Origin: a virus
Direction: 5' to 3' (one strand)
DNA: 64,000 nt
Virus record (IMG/VR): IMGVR_UViG_3300031576_000028
Location: 1-64,000 of that record
Shown: one piece after another, positions 29,065 through 63,221 of the stretch
How positions within the stretch are numbered: position 1 is the stretch's first letter
Layout: each line of letters starts with the position of its first letter
Translations under genes and position numbers: made by a program
The notes under the pieces: generated by a model
What the model saw: only the letters and a program-made list of their open reading frames with translations
Databases searched by the model: none
Told to the model about the DNA's origin: nothing

Positions 29065-29643
29065 CTACGCGCGGCGCCCCTGGATCAGGGAGAGCAGCTC
29101 CGCGCGGGAGCCGGGATCCTTCCGGAAGGCGCCCAGCATGCAGGAAGTCACGGTCGAGACGCCCTTCTTGTTGACGCCGCGGGTCGACATGCACTGGTGC
29201 TCGGCCTCGACCACGACCCCGACGGCGAGGGCCTCGAGGGACTCCTGGACCGCGTGGGCGATGTCGGAGGTCATCTTCTCCTGGATCTGCAGGCGCTTAG
29301 CGAAGGCGTCCACGACCCTGGCGAGCTTGGAGATCCCGACGACGCGCTTGTTCGGCAGGTAGCCCACGTGGACGACGCCGAGGATGGGGACGAGGTGGTG
29401 CTCGCAGTAGCTCTCGAACTGGATGTCCGTCAGCAGGACGATCTCGTCATAGCCGCTGACGTCCTCGAACGTCTTCGAGAGGATCTTTTTGGGGTCCTGT
29501 TCGTACCCGCGGAAGAACTCCTCGTAGGCCTTCACGACCCTGGATGGAGTATCGACCAGACCCTCGCGAGCCGGGTCGTCGCCGGCCCACGCGAGCAGCG
29601 TGCGCACGGCTGCCTCGGCCTCTAGCCTGGTCGGACGGGTCAC
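29065..29643 (-). CDS. folE: GTP cyclohydrolase I
   Basis: [33 protein letters not shown] and HQCMSTRGV motifs. Confidence 0.97.
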
Positions 29644-55705: not shown

Positions 55706-56352
55706 CCTACAAGACCCCTCCCCAGACGGCCTCGTTCTCAGCCGACTACGTCGTCGAGTGGAGCGTCGAGAACGACCCGGACAGGTACAAGAGGCTGTCG
55801 ACGGTCGGCGTCCCGACGCGCGACGAGGTCACCTACGACCGGCGCGGCAAGAAGAGGACGGAGAAGATCCCGACGCACGCGGTCGTCCTCGTCGCGCTGG
55901 AGGTCCCGCTCCCCGAGCTCGAGAAGGTGACCAGCCAGCTGAAGGCGAGCCGCCTCGTGAGGCCGATGGCGCCGGTGCTCCAGTTGATGATCGAGTCGGC
56001 GAGCGGGGCCACGGAGTGGCGCGACAGGTGCGCGAAGCTGGAGAAGGAGGTCCGTGACCTCCAGCTGCTCGCCGTCTCCAAGGCCTGCATGATCGACGCG
56101 CACGAGGTCGGCATCGCCAGGGCGTGCGACCTGACCGACGACGAACACCTGTGGAGCCGGTGCGGGGTGTCGGTGTCGAACCCCGGAGCGAAGCTGCTCG
56201 GCATCAGAAACCAGGAGGAGACCAAGAAGGAGATCAACCTGATCACCGTCGGGTCGTGCAACTACATTAAGCAGGTGAGGACGGCGCTGGACGAGAAGCG
56301 GGCCGACGTCGCCGCGCGCCTGCTGGCGGCCCTGCCCGAGGGCGACTTCTAG
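55702..56352 (+). CDS. Hypothetical protein
   Basis: AGGAG RBS; converges on queE with overlapping stops. Confidence 0.7.
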   Translation: MTYKTPPQTASFSADYVVEWSVENDPDRYKRLSTVGVPTRDEVTYDRRGKKRTEKIPTHAVVLVALEVPLPELEKVTSQLKASRLVRPMAPVLQLMIESASGATEWRDRCAKLEKEVRDLQLLAVSKACMIDAHEVGIARACDLTDDEHLWSRCGVSVSNPGAKLLGIRNQEETKKEINLITVGSCNYIKQVRTALDEKRADVAARLLAALPEGDF

Positions 56353-57113
56353 CGGACCCCGATGTACTTGTGCTGCTGGAGCGACAGGCGCCAGCGCGGG
56401 TTCCGCCTGACGAAGTCGACGCACAGGTTGACGTTGGCCGAGTAGATCTGACCAGCGACGCCGGAGCCAAGCGAGTGGTTCTTGATCGACCTGCCGTGCG
56501 TCAGCGCGGTGAGCTCGACGGTGGTCGGGTCGGTCACGTCCTGCGGCTGGACGAACAGATGCCCCCAGTCGCCCTGGTCGGCGAGGCCGAGAAGCTCCCC
56601 GTCCGACCACTGGTGCTCGGGCGGGGCGGCCGGGACGCCTCCCGGGAGGACGACCTTCAACTCCTCAGCCCGCCACACCACGAGCGTCGAGCCGCGCTTG
56701 GGGGAGACGCAGACGTGGTCGATGATGTCGAGCGCCTCGCACTGGTTGGTCCCGTTGGTCTCGATCGAGGTGAACCACCCCTCGTGCTTCAGCGCCTTCG
56801 CCAGCGCGAGGTCCAGCTGGAGCGTCGGCTCGCCGCCGGAGATCACGACCATGCGGCCGAGGTCTCCGGCCCCGCCCTGCTGCCAGTTGGCCTCGAGGCG
56901 CGTGAGGACCTCGGCCAGATCCTGCGAGTCGCCTTTGGCGAAGTTCGTGTCGCACCACATGGCGCAGGCCCCAGAGCCCTTGGCTCGGTCCTCTGGGCGC
57001 CCGTTCCACTGATTGCACCCCGACAGGCGCAGGAAGACGCAGGCGCGCCCGGCCAAGAGGCCCTCGCCCTGCAGCGTCGGGAAGATCTCGACCACTCCGT
57101 ACTTGCTAGACAT
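56349..57113 (-). CDS. queE: 7-carboxy-7-deazaguanine synthase (radical SAM)
   Basis: EIFPTLQGEG..AGR..VFLRLSGCN...C..WCDT, SGGEPTLQL, IETNGT, CVSPK, WRLSLQQHKYIG. Confidence 0.95.
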   Translation of the reverse strand: MSSKYGVVEIFPTLQGEGLLAGRACVFLRLSGCNQWNGRPEDRAKGSGACAMWCDTNFAKGDSQDLAEVLTRLEANWQQGGAGDLGRMVVISGGEPTLQLDLALAKALKHEGWFTSIETNGTNQCEALDIIDHVCVSPKRGSTLVVWRAEELKVVLPGGVPAAPPEHQWSDGELLGLADQGDWGHLFVQPQDVTDPTTVELTALTHGRSIKNHSLGSGVAGQIYSANVNLCVDFVRRNPRWRLSLQQHKYIGVR

Positions 57114-57606
57114 CGCGCCAGGTCCTTCCGTAGATCGCCGAGGCCATCGAGGTCTGGGAGACCCCGTACTTCTCGGCGAGGGTCTTGATCGACCAGCCGA
57201 GGGCCTTGAGGTTGTAGAGCATGCGGGCCTCGCGCACGGTCTCAATAGTTAGCTTGGACGCGTGGTGCCGCTCACCCCTGACGGGGTTGCTCCTCCGGCG
57301 GCCGCGGGCGTCCATGTCCGCGGTGTTCTCCTTGTGAGTGCCGATCACGAGGTGCCGCGGGTTCACGCAGGCGGGGACGTCGCACGTGTGGCGCACGACG
57401 AAGCCGCGCTGCCGGATGCCGGCGTGGGCGAGCTCCCAGGCGAAGCAGTGGGCGCCGACGAGCACGCCGCCGCCGCGGTTGAAGATCCCGTAGGTCGGCT
57501 CGCCGTCCTCGGTGGCGAGCGCCCCTGTCCAGATCCAGCACCCCGAGGGGTCCCTGCGGACGTGGCGCCAGAAGCGCCTCGCCGGGTCCTCAGCGCGCCG
57601 GGCCAA
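57106..57606 (-). CDS. HNH homing endonuclease between queD and queE
   Basis: RFWRHV...CWIWTG...AHCFAWE...VRHTCDVPACVNPRHLVIGTHKENTADM. Confidence 0.9.
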   Translation of the reverse strand: MARRAEDPARRFWRHVRRDPSGCWIWTGALATEDGEPTYGIFNRGGGVLVGAHCFAWELAHAGIRQRGFVVRHTCDVPACVNPRHLVIGTHKENTADMDARGRRRSNPVRGERHHASKLTIETVREARMLYNLKALGWSIKTLAEKYGVSQTSMASAIYGRTWRDV

Positions 57607-57609
57607 GCC

Positions 57610-58023
57610 TCACCGAGCCTTCGCCCTGCAGTTCAGCGTCTCCCACAGGACCACCTCCACGACCGTGATCCCGTAGTCGGACATCAGGTCGCGAGCCTTC
57701 GCGAGGAAGCGCATGGCGATGTTCTCGGCCGTGGGCGGCGCGGGGAGGGCCTCGCACTTCTGCCCGTCGCGGAGCAAGAAGGTGCCGAGCGGGTCGCCCT
57801 CCTGATAGAGGAAGCCGTGGTCCCAGTGCGCGTCGAGCCAGCCGCCGAGGACCTGCTTGACGACCGAGAAGTCGATCACGCGGCCGAGGTGATCGAGATC
57901 GACCGCCGAGCACTCGACCTCAAAGACGTAGCGGTGGCCGTGCGCGTTCCGGCATTTGCCCTCGTGACCCATCAGCCTGTGGCCGGCGTCGATCTCGAGG
58001 CGCTGGACGATGTTCGCGCTCAC
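57610..58023 (-). CDS. queD: 6-carboxy-5,6,7,8-tetrahydropterin synthase
   Basis: DAGHRL..HEGKCRNAHGHRY, DFS.VK, WDHGFL, PTAENIA, LWET. Confidence 0.95.
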   Translation of the reverse strand: MSANIVQRLEIDAGHRLMGHEGKCRNAHGHRYVFEVECSAVDLDHLGRVIDFSVVKQVLGGWLDAHWDHGFLYQEGDPLGTFLLRDGQKCEALPAPPTAENIAMRFLAKARDLMSDYGITVVEVVLWETLNCRAKAR

Positions 58024-58811
58024 GACTGCACAGCCTTCTTGGCGCGCCTGGGGGCCGGCGCCGGGACCGCCGCGGCCTTGGCCGCCACCTGCGCGTCGAC
58101 CTGAGCCGCCGTCGCCTGGAGTCGCTCGACCCAGTCCCGGAGGACGGTCTCGGGGTTGCTGCTCCCCACCGCGGCCGCGCTGCGGTTGAACTCGGTCATC
58201 AGCTCGTCGTGGAGCCTGACGGGGATCGACCCCTTCGAGGTGCCGAGCTGGAAGCGGCGCTCGCCGCCGATGTTAGCGGGCTCCTGCGGGCGGGCCGGCG
58301 TGTCGGGGAGCGTCGCCTCGACCGCGCCCCAGTCGAACTGGGTGGTCGACTTGACGAGGCTGTCGAGCTCGACGGCGGTCATCGGCAGCTCCTTGGCGAG
58401 GTCCTCGATCGAGGTCGAGTCGCTGAGGTCCTTGATGAGGGCCGCGAGGAGGACGGGCTCCGGGGCGCCGCGCAGCTCGTTGGCGATGATCGTCAGCTTC
58501 TTGGCCTTGGCGTCGTCCATGACGCCGAGGTTGATGGCGGGCACCTCCGTCATGCCCTCGGCGGTCGCCGCCTTCCACCTGTGCTCCCCGTCGATGATCT
58601 CGTAGAGGTAGAGGTTGCTAGGGTCGTTCACGATCACCCGAACCTTGATGGGCTCCACGAACCCGTAGGTGCGGATCGAGAGGCGCTCCTTCTCGAACAT
58701 CGCCTCGGACATTTTATTGGGGTTCCATGGATTTTTTCTGCATCGGCTGAGATCGACCATCTCGGCCTTGAGACCCTTGCCCCAGCTCAGCGTCTGCTTC
58801 TTCTCGCTCAT
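58020..58811 (-). CDS. ParB/Srx N-terminal domain protein
   Basis: NPWNPNKMS...SIRTYGFVEPI...YEIIDGEHRWKAA...NELRG. Confidence 0.88.
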   Translation of the reverse strand: MSEKKQTLSWGKGLKAEMVDLSRCRKNPWNPNKMSEAMFEKERLSIRTYGFVEPIKVRVIVNDPSNLYLYEIIDGEHRWKAATAEGMTEVPAINLGVMDDAKAKKLTIIANELRGAPEPVLLAALIKDLSDSTSIEDLAKELPMTAVELDSLVKSTTQFDWGAVEATLPDTPARPQEPANIGGERRFQLGTSKGSIPVRLHDELMTEFNRSAAAVGSSNPETVLRDWVERLQATAAQVDAQVAAKAAAVPAPAPRRAKKAVQS

Positions 58812-59737
58812 CTTGGCATCCTCGGGTTGGCTATCGCGGCGTCCCAGTCTACACCGCGGGCGCGCCAGATGTCAGTCACGTGCCTCTCGGCCTCGATCCA
58901 GGCCCTGGCAGAGGCTACCAGGCAGTCAACGCGCAGGCGGGACGTGGTCCCATTGCGAGGCATGATCCCGTACCACGACGGGCGCAGCATGGACTCACCG
59001 AGGCCCTCGCCCTGGTGGCGGATGTTCACGACGCCGCCCGCGCGGGTACTCATGACGTAGCTGCCCTGGGAGGTCGGCGTGATCCACGAGCTCGAGTCCA
59101 CGGAGTAGAACGGCCACTTCTGGATCGCCTCCTGCGAGGTCATCCGGAACGCGTGCACGCGCACGCCTCGGGCGTAGGCCTCCTTGAGGAAGCGGGTATA
59201 GTCGAGCGGGTCGCGGTTGAGCTGGTTGCCCTCGATCGCCACGTAGTTGGAGCGCCCGGGCCTGCGGCACTCCTCCAGCAGCTCGATCCAGTACGCCCAG
59301 TCCTGGTCGCTGTGCCAGACGTTGACGAGGCCGGCGCCGAGGCCGGCCCCGATGATCTTGTCGCGCTGCCTGTGCACCCAGTCGTAGGACGCCATCATCG
59401 CGATGTCGAGTTCGATCCACAGGTCGGCGAGGCCGGCCGTGCGGAGCCACCTGAGCCACTCGATGTAGCGCGCGAGGAACGCGTCGTAGTCGACGTCCTC
59501 GGCGTTGGCGCTGCCCGACGTCGACACGAGGTCGCTGACGCTCGTGCGCAGCGTGAAGGCCCCCGAGTCGATCAGCCTCAGGCCGGCCTGACGCAGGCAC
59601 TGGAGCCACACGTCGCGGTAAGTCTTGCGGAGGTACCCCGCGTAGAAGAAGGACGTGAGGACGTGCTGGGCCCCGGCGTGGACCGCGGCACTCGCGTGCT
59701 CCCGAGAAGACTCGATGGCTGCGAGGAAGATCTTCAT
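58808..59737 (-). CDS. dpdA: TGT/DpdA-like 7-deazaguanine base-exchange (transglycosylase) family protein
   Basis: LIDSGAFT, ELDI, VWH, YVAIEG, VHAF and PFYSVDSSSW TGT-fold motifs; inside the que operon; subfamily not determined. Confidence 0.7.
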   Translation of the reverse strand: MKIFLAAIESSREHASAAVHAGAQHVLTSFFYAGYLRKTYRDVWLQCLRQAGLRLIDSGAFTLRTSVSDLVSTSGSANAEDVDYDAFLARYIEWLRWLRTAGLADLWIELDIAMMASYDWVHRQRDKIIGAGLGAGLVNVWHSDQDWAYWIELLEECRRPGRSNYVAIEGNQLNRDPLDYTRFLKEAYARGVRVHAFRMTSQEAIQKWPFYSVDSSSWITPTSQGSYVMSTRAGGVVNIRHQGEGLGESMLRPSWYGIMPRNGTTSRLRVDCLVASARAWIEAERHVTDIWRARGVDWDAAIANPRMPR

Positions 59738-60210
59738 CGGCCGCGGTCCATCTTGTAGTCGGGCGGAGTCGATCGTACGCCGTCGCGGACAGCCCAGGTG
59801 ACCAGCGAGTACGGCACACCAACCGTGACCTGGTCGTTGGCGCGCAGCTTCTCCATCCACGGAGCGCGCATGTTGGCTCGCACCATCAAGGTGGCTCGCC
59901 AGAGGATCGGCCACGTGAGGCGGTCATCGACGTCGTCCTCGTTGACCGCGATCGTCAGGTGCCCCTTGGTGCGCGGAAGGACGTGCTGCTGGACCCAGGC
60001 CCAGTCGGTGAAGTTCTCAGTTAGGAACACGTGTCGGACGCGACTCGTGGACAGGCGCCGCTGCAGCTCCGCGAGGTCGCCTGGGTCCTGCGGCACCGAG
60101 TCGATGAACGCGGTCGGCACTCGGTGCCGGGCCAGCGCGCCCTCGACCTCTAGGCCGTACCAGATCGCCGTTCGACCGACGCCGACGTCCGGACCAGCTG
60201 GGTGGGTCAC
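59734..60210 (-). CDS. Unknown protein coupled between the glycosyltransferase and the DpdA-like gene
   Basis: GTGA/ATGA overlaps; WYGLEVEG...TAF N-terminus, DYxxD C-terminus. Confidence 0.7.
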   Translation of the reverse strand: MTHPAGPDVGVGRTAIWYGLEVEGALARHRVPTAFIDSVPQDPGDLAELQRRLSTSRVRHVFLTENFTDWAWVQQHVLPRTKGHLTIAVNEDDVDDRLTWPILWRATLMVRANMRAPWMEKLRANDQVTVGVPYSLVTWAVRDGVRSTPPDYKMDRGR

Positions 60211-61208
60211 TGGACTCCCAGCAGGCGGGCGATCCTGGGGATGGCGTAGTGCCCGGGCGCCGGGTCGAGGTGGTAGGGCTCCGACGCGTCTAGCGCGCGC
60301 CTGATCAGGAACGCCGCGCCCGCGATGGAGGAGTACTGGTGCTCGCGCTCGTAGAGCTCGAGGTACGAGAGGCGGGCGGGGACGACCGGGCGGCACCCGA
60401 GCGAGGCAGCCTCGAGCATCGCGATCCCCCAGGTCTCCTGCCGCGCCGACGAGAAGGCCACGCGGCTGTCGCCGAGGAGCGCGTAGTACTCCTGCTTGGT
60501 CTGGAAGCAGTCCTTGGTGCGCAGCCACTCGACCTGGTCGTCGGGGTAGGCGTCGGCGTAGGCCGACATCACATCCGCGAACTCCCACGGCGCCTTCTCC
60601 GGCGCGAGCCTGTGCGGGAACACGACCCGCCGCGGCCGGTCGTGCCAGGGCCTCGAGTACGACGACCACTCCTCGTCGAGGAGCGGGAAGCCCGTCACGT
60701 GGATCTTCGCTCGCGAGCAGCCGGCCCCCACAAGCATATCGCAGTGTAATTCCGTCGCCACGGCCACAACGTCGTAGATCTCGAACAGGGCCCTCTCGAA
60801 GCTCGGCGCCCAGCGACGCACTAGATCGGAGCGCCCCAGGAGGTCGTGCGGGTCGTAGGAGCCGGCATGGAAGAGGCCCGCGATCTTGAACGACACGCCA
60901 CCGAGGTCGCGCATGTACGCGAGCTGGACAGCGGCCGGACTCCACGCGTCGAGGCAGAGGACCCAGTCGCCGTCGCGGACTGAGCCTCCCCTCAGCTGGT
61001 GGCAGAACGCCGACAGCTGCGTCGACTTCCACAGGTTGGTGTCGACGACGTCGAGGAACTCGCCCTGGGTGATCTTCTCCTCCGCGTGGACACCAACCAC
61101 GGTCACGTACTCCGCGCCAAGCCTGGCGAGGGTGTCCGGGAACCAGCGCATCCACTGAGCGCTGTACCTTTCTTCCAATGGCTCGATAGGCATGATCCAG
61201 ATGGTCAT
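60207..61208 (-). CDS. GT-B glycosyltransferase (GT4-like; C-terminus resembles GTDC1/QTMAN)
   Basis: VFPHRLAPEK...KQEYYALL..SRVAFSSARQETWGIAMLEAASLGCRPVVPARLSYLELY (E-x7-E motif). Confidence 0.85.
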   Translation of the reverse strand: MTIWIMPIEPLEERYSAQWMRWFPDTLARLGAEYVTVVGVHAEEKITQGEFLDVVDTNLWKSTQLSAFCHQLRGGSVRDGDWVLCLDAWSPAAVQLAYMRDLGGVSFKIAGLFHAGSYDPHDLLGRSDLVRRWAPSFERALFEIYDVVAVATELHCDMLVGAGCSRAKIHVTGFPLLDEEWSSYSRPWHDRPRRVVFPHRLAPEKAPWEFADVMSAYADAYPDDQVEWLRTKDCFQTKQEYYALLGDSRVAFSSARQETWGIAMLEAASLGCRPVVPARLSYLELYEREHQYSSIAGAAFLIRRALDASEPYHLDPAPGHYAIPRIARLLGVQ

Positions 61209-61570
61209 CGGCTAGTCTCCGCCAGCTCCACCCGCGACCCGTTCTCGCCGTCCTCCCAGGCCTCGACCCAGGACACGACGTAGCCCTGGGAGCCTAGGTG
61301 GGAGGCGAGCTCTCTGGCGATCATCTCGCAACTGCGGGAACCGAAGTCGTGGCCGTCGTCACGGAACGATCTTCTAACGTCGTTCTGTAGGGTATGGAAC
61401 TCGACCTCGCGGTTGGAGTGGCTGACCACCACCGACGCGATGATCAGGAACATGTGTCGGTGCCGGTGCGAGAGGTACGAGACCTCTGGTGGCGCGCCGG
61501 GCCAGTAGTGGAACCCCGGCACTCTGTGGGTGACCATCACGGTAGTCTTCTCGGTCCTGATCTCGTTCAT
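61205..61570 (-). CDS. dpdL: QueD-like T-fold protein, DpdL-type (putative CDG decarboxylase)
   Basis: GFHYWPGAP..VSYLSHRHRHMF (LxxxHRHxF), REVEF, SCEMIA, EDGENG. Confidence 0.65.
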   Translation of the reverse strand: MNEIRTEKTTVMVTHRVPGFHYWPGAPPEVSYLSHRHRHMFLIIASVVVSHSNREVEFHTLQNDVRRSFRDDGHDFGSRSCEMIARELASHLGSQGYVVSWVEAWEDGENGSRVELAETSR

Positions 61571-61589: not shown

Positions 61590-63221
61590 TCACGTAACCT
61601 GCCCTCCGTCAACCCTCAGCCTGACGTCGGCGCGCGTGGACGCGAGCTGCTCATCGTGCGTGATGAGCACGACGCACCTGTCTCTCGCGAGGGAGGCGAC
61701 GACGTCCATCACGGCCTCGCGGCCGTCGGAGTCTAGGCTGTCGAACACCTCGTCGAAGAACAGCGGCGAGCGCCAGCTGCCGCCGCCCTGGACGCCGGAC
61801 GCCAGCTCTGCGAGGGACATCAGGATCGCCACGTCGACTCGGCGGCGCTCGCCCGCCGAGGCCCCAAGGTATCCGCCATCGCCGCCGGCGCCCGAGAGCC
61901 CGAGCGAGATCGAGTCGACCTGCCCGCCGGACTTCTTTTCCGTGTACGGCTTGAGGGAGATCCTGACCTCGGACTGCAGACGCCCTATCCAGGTGTTCGC
62001 CAGCGACTCGACCCCGGACAGCGTGCGGCCGAGGAGCAGGGCGCGGGCGCCGCGGATGCCGAGGACCTGCTCGCAGGCCTCGAGCTCGGCGACATCGACG
62101 CTGGCCTGGTCGATGGACGCCTGCACCTCGAGGAGCCGCTCGCTGGTCAGCGCCAGCTTTGGTCCCTGCTCGTCGAGGGCGGCCTGCAGGCGCGTGCGGA
62201 GGACCCTCTGGTGCTCGATGCCGTTGAGCTTGGCGCGGGCGCCGTCGAGGAGGGGGCGCAGGGCCTCGGCCTCCTCGTTCAGCTCCCCCAGCTGGGCGGT
62301 GACCTTCTCCAGATCGACGGACGCGGACGCCACCGCGGCCTCGGCGGCAGCGAGGGCCTCGCGGACCTCGGACTCCAGCCGCGCCCGGACCCCCTTCGTG
62401 ATCAGCTGCCCGCACGCGTGGCAGTCGCCGTCGCCAAGCCGGCTGAGCCTGGAGCGGGCCTGCTGGGCCCTCTCGCGCTCCGCGCCGCCCGCGCCGTGCA
62501 GCCTGTTGCGCCTGCGGTCGAGGTCGACGTACTCGCCGGACACGTCGGCCAGGTGGTCGGTGTACTTGTGGACCTCGACCCTGGCGAGGCCGACCTCGGG
62601 CACCGGCCCAGCCTGCTCCAGCAGCTCCTGCGCCTGGCGCAGCTGCTTGCTGATCCCGTCCAGCCTCTCGCGGAGGAGGTCGCGCTCCCGCTCCGCCTGC
62701 CCGCGCGCCGTCTGGGCGGCACGGAGGTCGTGGCGGCAGGCGACCAGCGCGCGGTCGAACCAGCCGAGGCCGAGGAGGGACTCGAGCAGCTCCTTGCGCT
62801 CGGCGTCCGTCGAGAGGGTGAAGTGGGCGGCGTCGGCCGCGCTGAACACGCAGGTCCGGCGCCACACGTCGAAGGGCCCGACGTACTGGTCGAGCGCCTC
62901 CTGGGCCTTGGTCGTCGTGTCGAACTCGATCATCCCGCCGGCGACCATGCGGCGCCACTTGAGCTGCTTGGCCTTGCCAGTCCACTTGCGCTCGACTACG
63001 ACCTGGGACGCCTGGTCCGTGATCGTCACGTGGCCGGCCTCGGCGCGCCACGGGGACCACCGCAGGCTCCTAGAGCCCTTGCCCCACATGGCGACCCCGA
63101 CGGCCTCCAGGATAGCGCTCTTGCCGGCTCCGTTGGACCCGGTGACCTGGACCACGCCGCGTTCCGGGAGCTCGACCACCGAGTGGTCGTGGCTCATAAA
63201 ATTGGTCAGCTCGATGATCAC
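61590..63221 (-). CDS. SbcC/Rad50-like SMC ATPase
   Basis: Walker A GSNGAGKS, coiled coil with CHAC zinc hook, SAGERRR signature, FFDEVFDSLD, ITH. Confidence 0.93.
   Translation of the reverse strand: MIIELTNFMSHDHSVVELPERGVVQVTGSNGAGKSAILEAVGVAMWGKGSRSLRWSPWRAEAGHVTITDQASQVVVERKWTGKAKQLKWRRMVAGGMIEFDTTTKAQEALDQYVGPFDVWRRTCVFSAADAAHFTLSTDAERKELLESLLGLGWFDRALVACRHDLRAAQTARGQAERERDLLRERLDGISKQLRQAQELLEQAGPVPEVGLARVEVHKYTDHLADVSGEYVDLDRRRNRLHGAGGAERERAQQARSRLSRLGDGDCHACGQLITKGVRARLESEVREALAAAEAAVASASVDLEKVTAQLGELNEEAEALRPLLDGARAKLNGIEHQRVLRTRLQAALDEQGPKLALTSERLLEVQASIDQASVDVAELEACEQVLGIRGARALLLGRTLSGVESLANTWIGRLQSEVRISLKPYTEKKSGGQVDSISLGLSGAGGDGGYLGASAGERRRVDVAILMSLAELASGVQGGGSWRSPLFFDEVFDSLDSDGREAVMDVVASLARDRCVVLITHDEQLASTRADVRLRVDGGQVT

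Follow-up and report, generated by a model that had tools for sequence, protein, structure and literature searches.

Why should a phage carry a glycosyltransferase gene inside an operon for 7-deazaguanine DNA modification, and what would the enzyme glycosylate? The question is raised by a 64,000-nucleotide stretch of DNA from an uncultured phage (positions 1 to 64,000 of IMG/VR record IMGVR_UViG_3300031576_000028, hereafter the window), in which an open reading frame (ORF) of 333 amino acids (aa) on the minus strand at 60207-61208, which begins with ATG and is free of internal stops, encodes a predicted glycosyltransferase (GT) of GT-B fold and GT4-like type. A first-pass annotation had likened this protein to QTMAN/GTDC1, the mannosyltransferase of queuosine (Q), and had proposed that the phage glycosylates a 7-deazaguanine in DNA or its precursor. 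We favour, with moderate confidence, the reading that the GT is an active, probably retaining GT4-like GT-B enzyme dedicated to a QueC-less pathway of 7-deazaguanine DNA modification, where it would make a sugar-bearing 7-deazaguanine; that 7-deazaguanine is the acceptor, either in DNA or as a precursor, we infer from gene linkage alone. The T4 alpha- and beta-glucosyltransferases act after replication on 5-hydroxymethylcytosine in DNA. To our knowledge, the sugars of phage DNA are carried on hydroxymethyl-pyrimidines, and if 7-deazaguanine were found to bear one, it would be the first purine analogue known to be glycosylated in DNA. Eight 7-deazaguanine bases of DNA are named by Cui et al. 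(2023, PMC10516641); all of them have small substituents and none is glycosylated. On the favoured reading, the phage would combine DNA glycosylation with 7-deazaguanine DNA modification, both of which are already known.

Analysis of the GT gene and its product indicated a coding sequence with a recognizable fold. Third-position GC of the ORF is 0.92, against about 0.67 overall in the region of a genome with about 68% GC, and 60207-61208 on the minus strand is therefore a coding frame in a high-GC genome. The translation holds, in order, VVFPHRLAPEK, KQEYYALL, FSSARQETWGIAMLEA and LGCRPVVPARLSYLELY; all of the motif strings quoted in the first-pass annotation are present in the 333-aa product, where they form the conserved core of a large family. 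An AlphaFold2 model (pLDDT 93.7, pTM 0.90) has a complete GT-B fold, with two Rossmann-like domains in GT-B topology. The top Foldseek match of this model was MshA (3c4q, E=5e-12), followed by BshA, sucrose-phosphate synthase, PglA and tetrahydrobiopterin glucosyltransferase, so that the nearest solved structures are retaining, generic GT4 enzymes. In solved GT4 enzymes, the counterparts of R200/K205 and E258-x7-E266 are the phosphate-binding and EX7E motifs: the R...K pair aligns with RLATEK of Gtf1 (5e9t) and the E...E segment with 8xsg. The earlier assignment as a glycosyltransferase is thus borne out by a GT-B-fold model with intact donor-site motifs, and the window GT is probably an intact nucleotide-sugar glycosyltransferase of the retaining type, this activity being predicted from model and motifs. 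Identity to MshA and BshA, the retaining GT4 UDP-N-acetylglucosamine (UDP-GlcNAc) transferases of mycothiol and bacillithiol synthesis, is just 12-16%, and the phage GT differs from them in an N-terminal acceptor domain with its own invariant residues. Sequence searches gave little: as a single sequence the GT matched nothing significantly in Pfam, PHROGs or PDB sequences, an NCBIfam search returned only a weak match to WcaL, and the family profile found only weak GT4 matches among PDB sequences. At E<=0.1, 30 of 32 family members matched Glycos_transf_1 (best 3.2e-6), and 13 of the 32 matched Glyco_transf_4. The family is a divergent GT4-like branch whose recognition depends on predicted fold and motifs and not on the Pfam model.

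This branch is large and essentially confined to phages. We found 717 family members at E<=1e-3 in a set of 5.8 billion proteins, and the family occurs on at least 595 IMG/VR contigs; its Atlas clusters are 95-100% viral. Among cultured phages, tblastn detected the GT in 23 records from at least seven genera (no cultured phage was matched when 20 kb of the window were compared with them by megablast), while relatives in cellular genomes were found at just 15 loci among 185,579 prokaryote species genomes, all 15 of them in metagenome-assembled genomes (MAGs). An alignment of 32 diverse members with 38-59% identity (alignment A1) contains 35 invariant columns, including H114-A-G, D119, D122, P198-H-R200, K205, E258 and E266. 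R200, K205, E258 and E266 are invariant in 32/32 members, and the wider set of P198, H199, R200, K205, E258, E266, R279, L280 and Y282 is invariant or nearly so. The N-terminal acceptor domain has invariant residues of its own (E9, R14, Y15, W19, D53, D87, W89, H114, D119 and D122), and an invariant PIEPLEERY segment stands in place of the usual N-terminal glycine-rich loop. This replacement, together with the sub-threshold scores against Pfam GT models, could mean that the protein no longer transfers sugar and acts instead as a GT-B-fold scaffold or nucleotide-binding subunit, aiding DpdA or DpdL through base binding or recruitment of a complex. We consider such a non-catalytic role very unlikely, as HR...K and EX7E are invariant across a family that has diverged to 25-40% identity, a pattern typical of purifying selection on catalysis. 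Moreover, genes for nucleotide-sugar enzymes co-occur with the GT, and the GT is retained while the DpdA type changes between a window type, a 517-aa type and a phrog_10773 type.

The proposed likeness to QTMAN is of interest as this enzyme acts on a 7-deazaguanine derivative: it mannosylates Q in tRNA, its acceptor being the cyclopentenediol hydroxyl of Q, and it is the one enzyme we know of that glycosylates such a derivative. We compared the phage GT with 12 bacterial proteins of PF12038 (now named QTMAN_N in Pfam), which stood in for animal GTDC1. The GT profile matched the alignment of these 12 proteins with an hhalign probability of 99.3% (E=1e-20), and the match was confined to the C-terminal donor domain (A1 columns 146-301). 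Against single sequences, the GT profile gave scores of 85-125 for the 12 QTMAN_N proteins and of 11.5-68 for 24 generic GT4 controls from four genomes, some of whose frames are probably wrong, yet none of which exceeded 68; the reciprocal test gave 72-100 for QTMAN proteins versus 12-55 for controls. Two motifs of the donor domain are common to the phage GT and QTMAN, with HRxxxxK present in 32/32 phage GT members, 12/12 QTMAN proteins and 1/24 controls, and RL[AS]YxE present in 28/32, 12/12 and 0/24, respectively. On these profile and motif comparisons the likeness is real and specific, going beyond generic GT4 similarity, but is limited to the donor half. The phage GT has no detectable QTMAN_N domain and is about 330 aa long compared with about 365 aa for the QTMAN proteins; by predicted domain architecture it is not a member of the QTMAN family. 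No PF12038 cluster was present among the 30 Atlas clusters nearest to the GT, and no QTMAN/GTDC1 entry was returned by the PDB searches. Thus, the resemblance noted in the first-pass annotation survives for the C-terminal domain, which is closer to the 12 bacterial QTMAN_N proteins than to the 24 GT4 controls, and is lost for the N-terminal domain. As the likeness is limited to the donor domain, the analogy is silent on the acceptor, and the group that QTMAN modifies could not be made by the phage pathway. If the predicted product is made, the link to the QTMAN lineage would suggest that glycosylation of 7-deazaguanine arose in one enzyme lineage that serves both RNA and DNA. QTMAN_N proteins of 360-373 aa, from which the 12 stand-ins were taken, were observed in 28/401 sampled Pseudomonadota genomes (loci L102-L113); we know of no described role for these bacterial proteins and of no bacteria that make mannosyl-queuosine.

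With the analogy uninformative about the acceptor, the genomic setting becomes the principal guide. Genes on the minus strand of the window run in the order SbcC-like, DpdL, GT, a 158-aa ORF, DpdA/TGT-like (tRNA-guanine transglycosylase-like), ParB_N, QueD, HNH and QueE. The small protein encoded upstream of the GT (61205-61570, minus; phrog_17812, E=1.4e-19) has 121 aa from the ATG at 61570, in an ORF that extends without a stop as far upstream as a TTG at 61612. We assign it to DpdL, a T-fold paralogue of QueD and proposed decarboxylase of 7-carboxy-7-deazaguanine (CDG), because it contains the LxxxHRHxF signature that defines DpdL (Cui et al. 2023, PMC10516641), has profile kinship to QueD (hhalign E=3.4e-6) and matches, in tblastn, the region beside a MazG-like gene in the Cellulophaga phages phiST, phi13:1 and phi19:2, whose DNA contains 2'-deoxy-7-deazaguanine (dDG). 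The signature is invariant across 28 homologues (alignment A2), with L33, H37, R38, H39 and F41 invariant or nearly so. The start of the GT overlaps the DpdL stop (ATGA, 61205-61208), the GT stop overlaps the GTG start of the 158-aa ORF (GTGA, 60207-60210) and the stop of that ORF overlaps the ATG of the DpdA-like gene (ATGA), an arrangement by which DpdL, GT, the 158-aa ORF and DpdA are predicted to be translationally coupled through 4-nt overlaps. The DpdA/TGT-like protein, a candidate DNA-guanine transglycosylase (58808-59737, minus; 309 aa from the ATG at 59737), matches phrog_887 'queuine tRNA-ribosyltransferase' (E=9.7e-22 on the longer ORF, the match beginning at residue 58) and has no Pfam TGT match at E<=0.01. 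Further downstream lie QueD, the 6-carboxy-tetrahydropterin synthase (57610-58023, minus; PF01242, E=5.2e-27; TIGR03367, E=7.8e-20), whose catalytic CxxxHGH motif is present as C-RNA-HGH, and QueE, the radical-SAM CDG synthase (56349-57113, minus; likely start ATG at 57113), which matches TIGR04508 queE_Cx14CxxC (E=3.2e-49, from residue 49 of the long ORF) and phrog_2076 (E=1.6e-23). FolE, the GTP cyclohydrolase I of the first pathway step (29083-29616, minus; PF01227, E=9.5e-75), is encoded about 27 kb from the operon, and a search of the 78.9-kb record, of an estimated 89% completeness, found no QueC. The deazaguanine-operon setting named in the first-pass annotation is therefore confirmed; DpdL overlaps the GT upstream, and DpdA-like, QueD and QueE genes follow downstream.

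The linkage recurs in other genomes. We examined 80 related IMG/VR loci with flanks of up to 10 kb, using iterative hidden Markov models (HMMs) for the counts. At least one of FolE, QueD, QueE and DpdL lies within 10 kb of the GT in 79/80 loci; DpdL was found in 76/80, FolE in 69/80, QueE in 54/80 and QueC in 1/80, and the four loci that lack DpdL have the GT about 1.4 kb or less from an end of the locus. Deazaguanine genes are likewise beside the GT (within 10 kb) in 14/15 MAG contigs, and DpdL was matched in 16/23 of the cultured-phage records that carry the GT. Five cultured-phage neighbourhoods were inspected (PA5oct, ACP17, Phosso, BUCT-ZZ01 and PhiXhv-12). In the first four, QueE, QueD or FolE is no more than about 6 kb from the GT, and QueC was not found in these four complete genomes. 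DpdL is matched about 1.5-3 kb from the GT in X1, BUDD and BCSR5, and tblastn gave no DpdL match in five Xanthomonas/Erwinia records of the PhiXhv-12 group; in PhiXhv-12, the only member of that group inspected, a Gat-QueC gene (annotated as GlmS) and a PIG-L deacetylase gene are directly upstream of the GT. The co-occurrence with dpdA, dpdL and queE genes that had been put forward as a check is thus near-universal in the IMG/VR, MAG and cultured-phage sets, as is co-occurrence with folE. Comparison of structures, also put forward as a check, placed generic GT4 enzymes (MshA, BshA and sucrose-phosphate synthase) nearest to the GT.

The GT is almost always part of this module, whereas its DpdA differs in type. 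None of the 80 IMG/VR loci has both the window-type DpdA (22 loci) and a 517-aa family (51 loci), and the latter shows a distant relationship to phrog_10773 of ACP17 and BUCT-ZZ01 (hhalign E=1e-5). Members of this 517-540-aa family, which has no Pfam or PHROG match, are encoded by PA5oct EST35_0316 (L001:6379-8001) and in 51/80 IMG/VR loci, with the ACP17 gene at L002:6718-7992; the family is probably the DpdA3-like inserter of its lineages. A module of GT, DpdL, QueE and the 517-aa protein was also seen inside a 3.18-Mb Alphaproteobacteria MAG contig (L101, 1709437-1730294), where it may be a prophage. Other modules are on short contigs binned into candidate phyla radiation (CPR), DPANN and archaeal MAGs (L087, L097-L100), and these are probably viral contigs.

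Such linkage bears on the alternative that the GT is active on some other acceptor, for instance Q or another base of host or phage tRNA, a pterin of the FolE/QueD branch, a protein or an envelope glycan, and shares only its regulation with the que genes. Analogues for this alternative exist in QTMAN for tRNA and in tetrahydrobiopterin glucosyltransferase for pterin. We nevertheless judge it unlikely, as it is hard to see why, without a shared substrate, the GT should almost invariably stand next to DpdL and the CDG genes in very distant phages and across three collections. More specifically, the N-terminal domain is not QTMAN_N and these phages lack QueC, so that Q precursors are not self-made, which argues against tRNA; for a pterin acceptor the difficulty is that QueE commits the pterin to a deazapurine. 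A surface-glycan glycosyltransferase carried as a moron was rejected on the linkage statistics. We also rejected a hydroxymethyl-pyrimidine glycosyltransferase because there is no ThyA-family gene: the hydroxymethylase of the thymidylate-synthase family that is the source of the acceptor in T4 AGT/BGT-type systems was not found with the phage GT (PF00303, examined in this record, ACP17 and BUCT-ZZ01).

Neighbouring genes for sugar metabolism fit the presence of a real, and sometimes elaborated, sugar. A gene resembling short-chain dehydrogenase/reductase (SDR) epimerases and GDP-mannose dehydratases is present in 25/80 IMG/VR loci (e.g. L045:4553-5350) and a HIT-family gene in 22/80 (e.g. L031:12979-13398), each about 5 kb or less from the GT, and these genes may supply or tailor the donor sugar. 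In PhiXhv-12, the GT lies between genes for a PIG-L GlcNAc deacetylase and a GFO/IDH/MocA oxidoreductase. The PhiXhv-12 locus (PV764601.1, 115739-124996; L005:600-9857) has further features of its own. Genes for a leucyl/phenylalanyl (L/F)-tRNA-protein transferase and a GNAT/FemAB-like protein are followed in order by Gat-QueC, PIG-L deacetylase, GT and GFO/IDH/MocA oxidoreductase, and what is annotated there as 'L-glutamine-D-fructose-6-phosphate aminotransferase' proves to be a Gat-QueC fusion (PF06508, E=2e-49, plus a glutamine amidotransferase domain, GATase). The GT homologue of this locus has an HRWAEDK motif, which is close to the form of the motif in the bacterial QTMAN family. This locus looks like a system for aminosugar and aminoacyl hypermodification on an archaeosine-type base.

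A purine-type phosphoribosyltransferase (PF00156) was found in 43/80 IMG/VR loci, a count taken from a single-round search as the iterative HMM drifted into FolE (118 ORFs), and also in PA5oct (MK797984.1, 226978-227229) and BUCT-ZZ01 (L004:3084-3545); none is present in the module of this window. This enzyme occurs with the FolE/QueE/DpdL/GT module and therefore some lineages may turn the deazaguanine base into a nucleotide, which suggests a base-to-nucleotide route operating alongside or instead of base exchange by DpdA.

From these data we propose the following mechanism. FolE, QueD and QueE, all three of which are encoded in the window, would make CDG. DpdL, encoded immediately upstream of the GT, would decarboxylate CDG, as proposed for this protein, and the DpdA-like transglycosylase, two genes downstream of the GT, would put the base into DNA. 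The GT would bind a nucleotide sugar at the R200/K205 and E258/E266 site of its QTMAN-like C-terminal domain and attach the sugar to the 7-deazaguanine product, yielding virion DNA with a glycosylated 7-deazaguanine that would be shielded from restriction and other DNA-reading defences. Sugar addition could take place either after insertion into DNA, as for 5-hydroxymethylcytosine in T4 and for QTMAN, or on the free base or nucleotide. As 7-deazaguanine has no side-chain hydroxyl, the candidates for attachment are the CDG carboxylate, N2, O6 and the electron-rich C7/C8, and direct glycosylation of the base would possibly involve unusual chemistry such as a C-glycoside at C7, an acyl glycoside or an N-glycoside.

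Several observations weigh against a sugar-bearing 7-deazaguanine as the product. The main weakness is that, if DpdL decarboxylates CDG, the resulting base offers no evident O- or N-acceptor at position C7. The GT is also dispensable for the basic pathway because phiST-type phages make dDG with DpdL and without the GT. At the level of the protein, the window GT is under the Pfam gathering threshold for PF00534 (Glycos_transf_1; 15.5 versus 26.4 bits, E=0.013), none of the 32 GT members matches PF12038 at E<=0.1, and the profile of the N-terminal domain has no similarity to the QTMAN_N region of the 12 bacterial members (hhalign E=0.086, probability 0.7%). With a median isoelectric point (pI) of about 5.5-5.9, compared with 9.0 for the window-type DpdA family, the GT proteins are acidic and therefore do not resemble DNA-binding enzymes; this low pI mildly favours a small molecule over DNA as the predicted acceptor. 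Finally, in the literature searched, with subscription papers outside it, there is no report of a sugar on deazaguanine in DNA and no paper tying a glycosyltransferase to deazaguanine DNA, and this literature held nothing relevant on DpdL/DpdA3 follow-ups or on QTMAN structure.

A further alternative is that the sugar is a transient handle. The GT would then glycosylate CDG, e.g. as an acyl glycoside, or another intermediate, activating or marking it for DpdL, DpdA or a phosphoribosyltransferase; the sugar would leave before insertion or in the course of it, and mature DNA would contain plain dDG or another small derivative. The CDG carboxylate is the sole side-chain nucleophile available, and the GT is tightly paired with DpdL, overlapping it in the window and adjacent to it in 76/80 loci. 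We know of no precedent for sugar activation in deazapurine pathways, which counts against this possibility. It would be consistent with the finding that DpdL and DpdA of ACP17, expressed without the GT, gave no dDG in E. coli, a result that led its authors to suggest that further enzymes might be required (PMC10516641). We regard a transient sugar as quite unlikely since phiST-type phages reach dDG without a GT, and the PIG-L deacetylase, oxidoreductase and epimerase beside the GT in some lineages better fit a sugar that is retained and elaborated.

A sugar-bearing 7-deazaguanine, our favoured reading, would also set the window apart from a closely related known system. The DpdL-type dDG system of Cellulophaga phage phiST comprises FolE, QueD, QueE, DpdL and DpdA3 (Cui, Hutinet et al. 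2023, PMC10516641), and the two phages share a CDG pathway without QueC and a DpdL with LxxxHRHxF, beside replication genes, together with a DpdA-family gene that in the window is a candidate. By contrast, tblastn showed no homologue of the phage GT in phiST or its relatives, the window has a phrog_887-like DpdA type, a ParB-like gene and an extra 158-aa ORF, and its predicted product lies one step past dDG or the corresponding 7-carboxy base (dCDG). We tentatively predict, with slightly more doubt than belief, that virion DNA of this phage and of the many phages with DpdL and GT, including PA5oct, ACP17, Phosso and BUCT-ZZ01, carries a sugar directly on the 7-deazaguanine base, added by a branch of the queuosine-mannosyltransferase lineage that works with DpdL. 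PA5oct, which also carries the GT, has an unidentified modified G in its DNA (2025 preprint, PMC12191111). If true, a deazaguanine with a sugar would constitute a DNA base of a new class, would explain the modified G of this therapeutic-candidate jumbo phage, and might explain the failed reconstitution of ACP17 DpdL and DpdA. It would also bear on how END nucleases, Dag glycosylases and type IV restriction see these phages. The GT family is abundant and several of its carriers are cultured, so the prediction is directly testable.

Other genes lie in or beside the operon. The 158-aa ORF (59734-60210, minus), which overlaps the GT by GTGA and the DpdA-like gene by ATGA, has no Pfam match and was assigned to no family; a homologue is present in just 1/80 related loci (L008, E=4.6e-23), and we rejected this ORF as a conserved module partner on that count. 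The ParB_N-domain protein (58020-58811, minus; PF02195, E=8.4e-12; phrog_723, E=8.5e-21) is possibly a DpdB-like helper of DpdA, and its homologues occur in just 4/80 related loci. An HNH homing-type endonuclease (57106-57606, minus; PF13392, E=3.3e-7; phrog_1872, E=2.2e-30) is encoded between queD and queE, overlapping the start of queE by 8 nt, and is probably a selfish homing-endonuclease insertion that stands outside the pathway. An SbcC-like nuclease subunit (61590-63221, minus) lies upstream of DpdL, and from 64 to 79 kb the record carries the genes of a replication module (primase, DNA polymerase, single-stranded DNA-binding protein (SSB), UvsX-like recombinase and SbcCD). Two proteins of this module have an unusual composition. 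A 609-aa ORF (record 69066-70895; L138:6067-7896) has dCTP-deaminase matches at its C-terminal end and terminase/primase-like matches in the middle of the protein, while the 1176-aa DNA polymerase (record 71126-74656; L138:8127-11657) contains an internal stretch that matches ribonucleotide reductase (RNR)- and PhoH-like families. Each has the look of a replication gene that carries an insertion, of intein type or otherwise.

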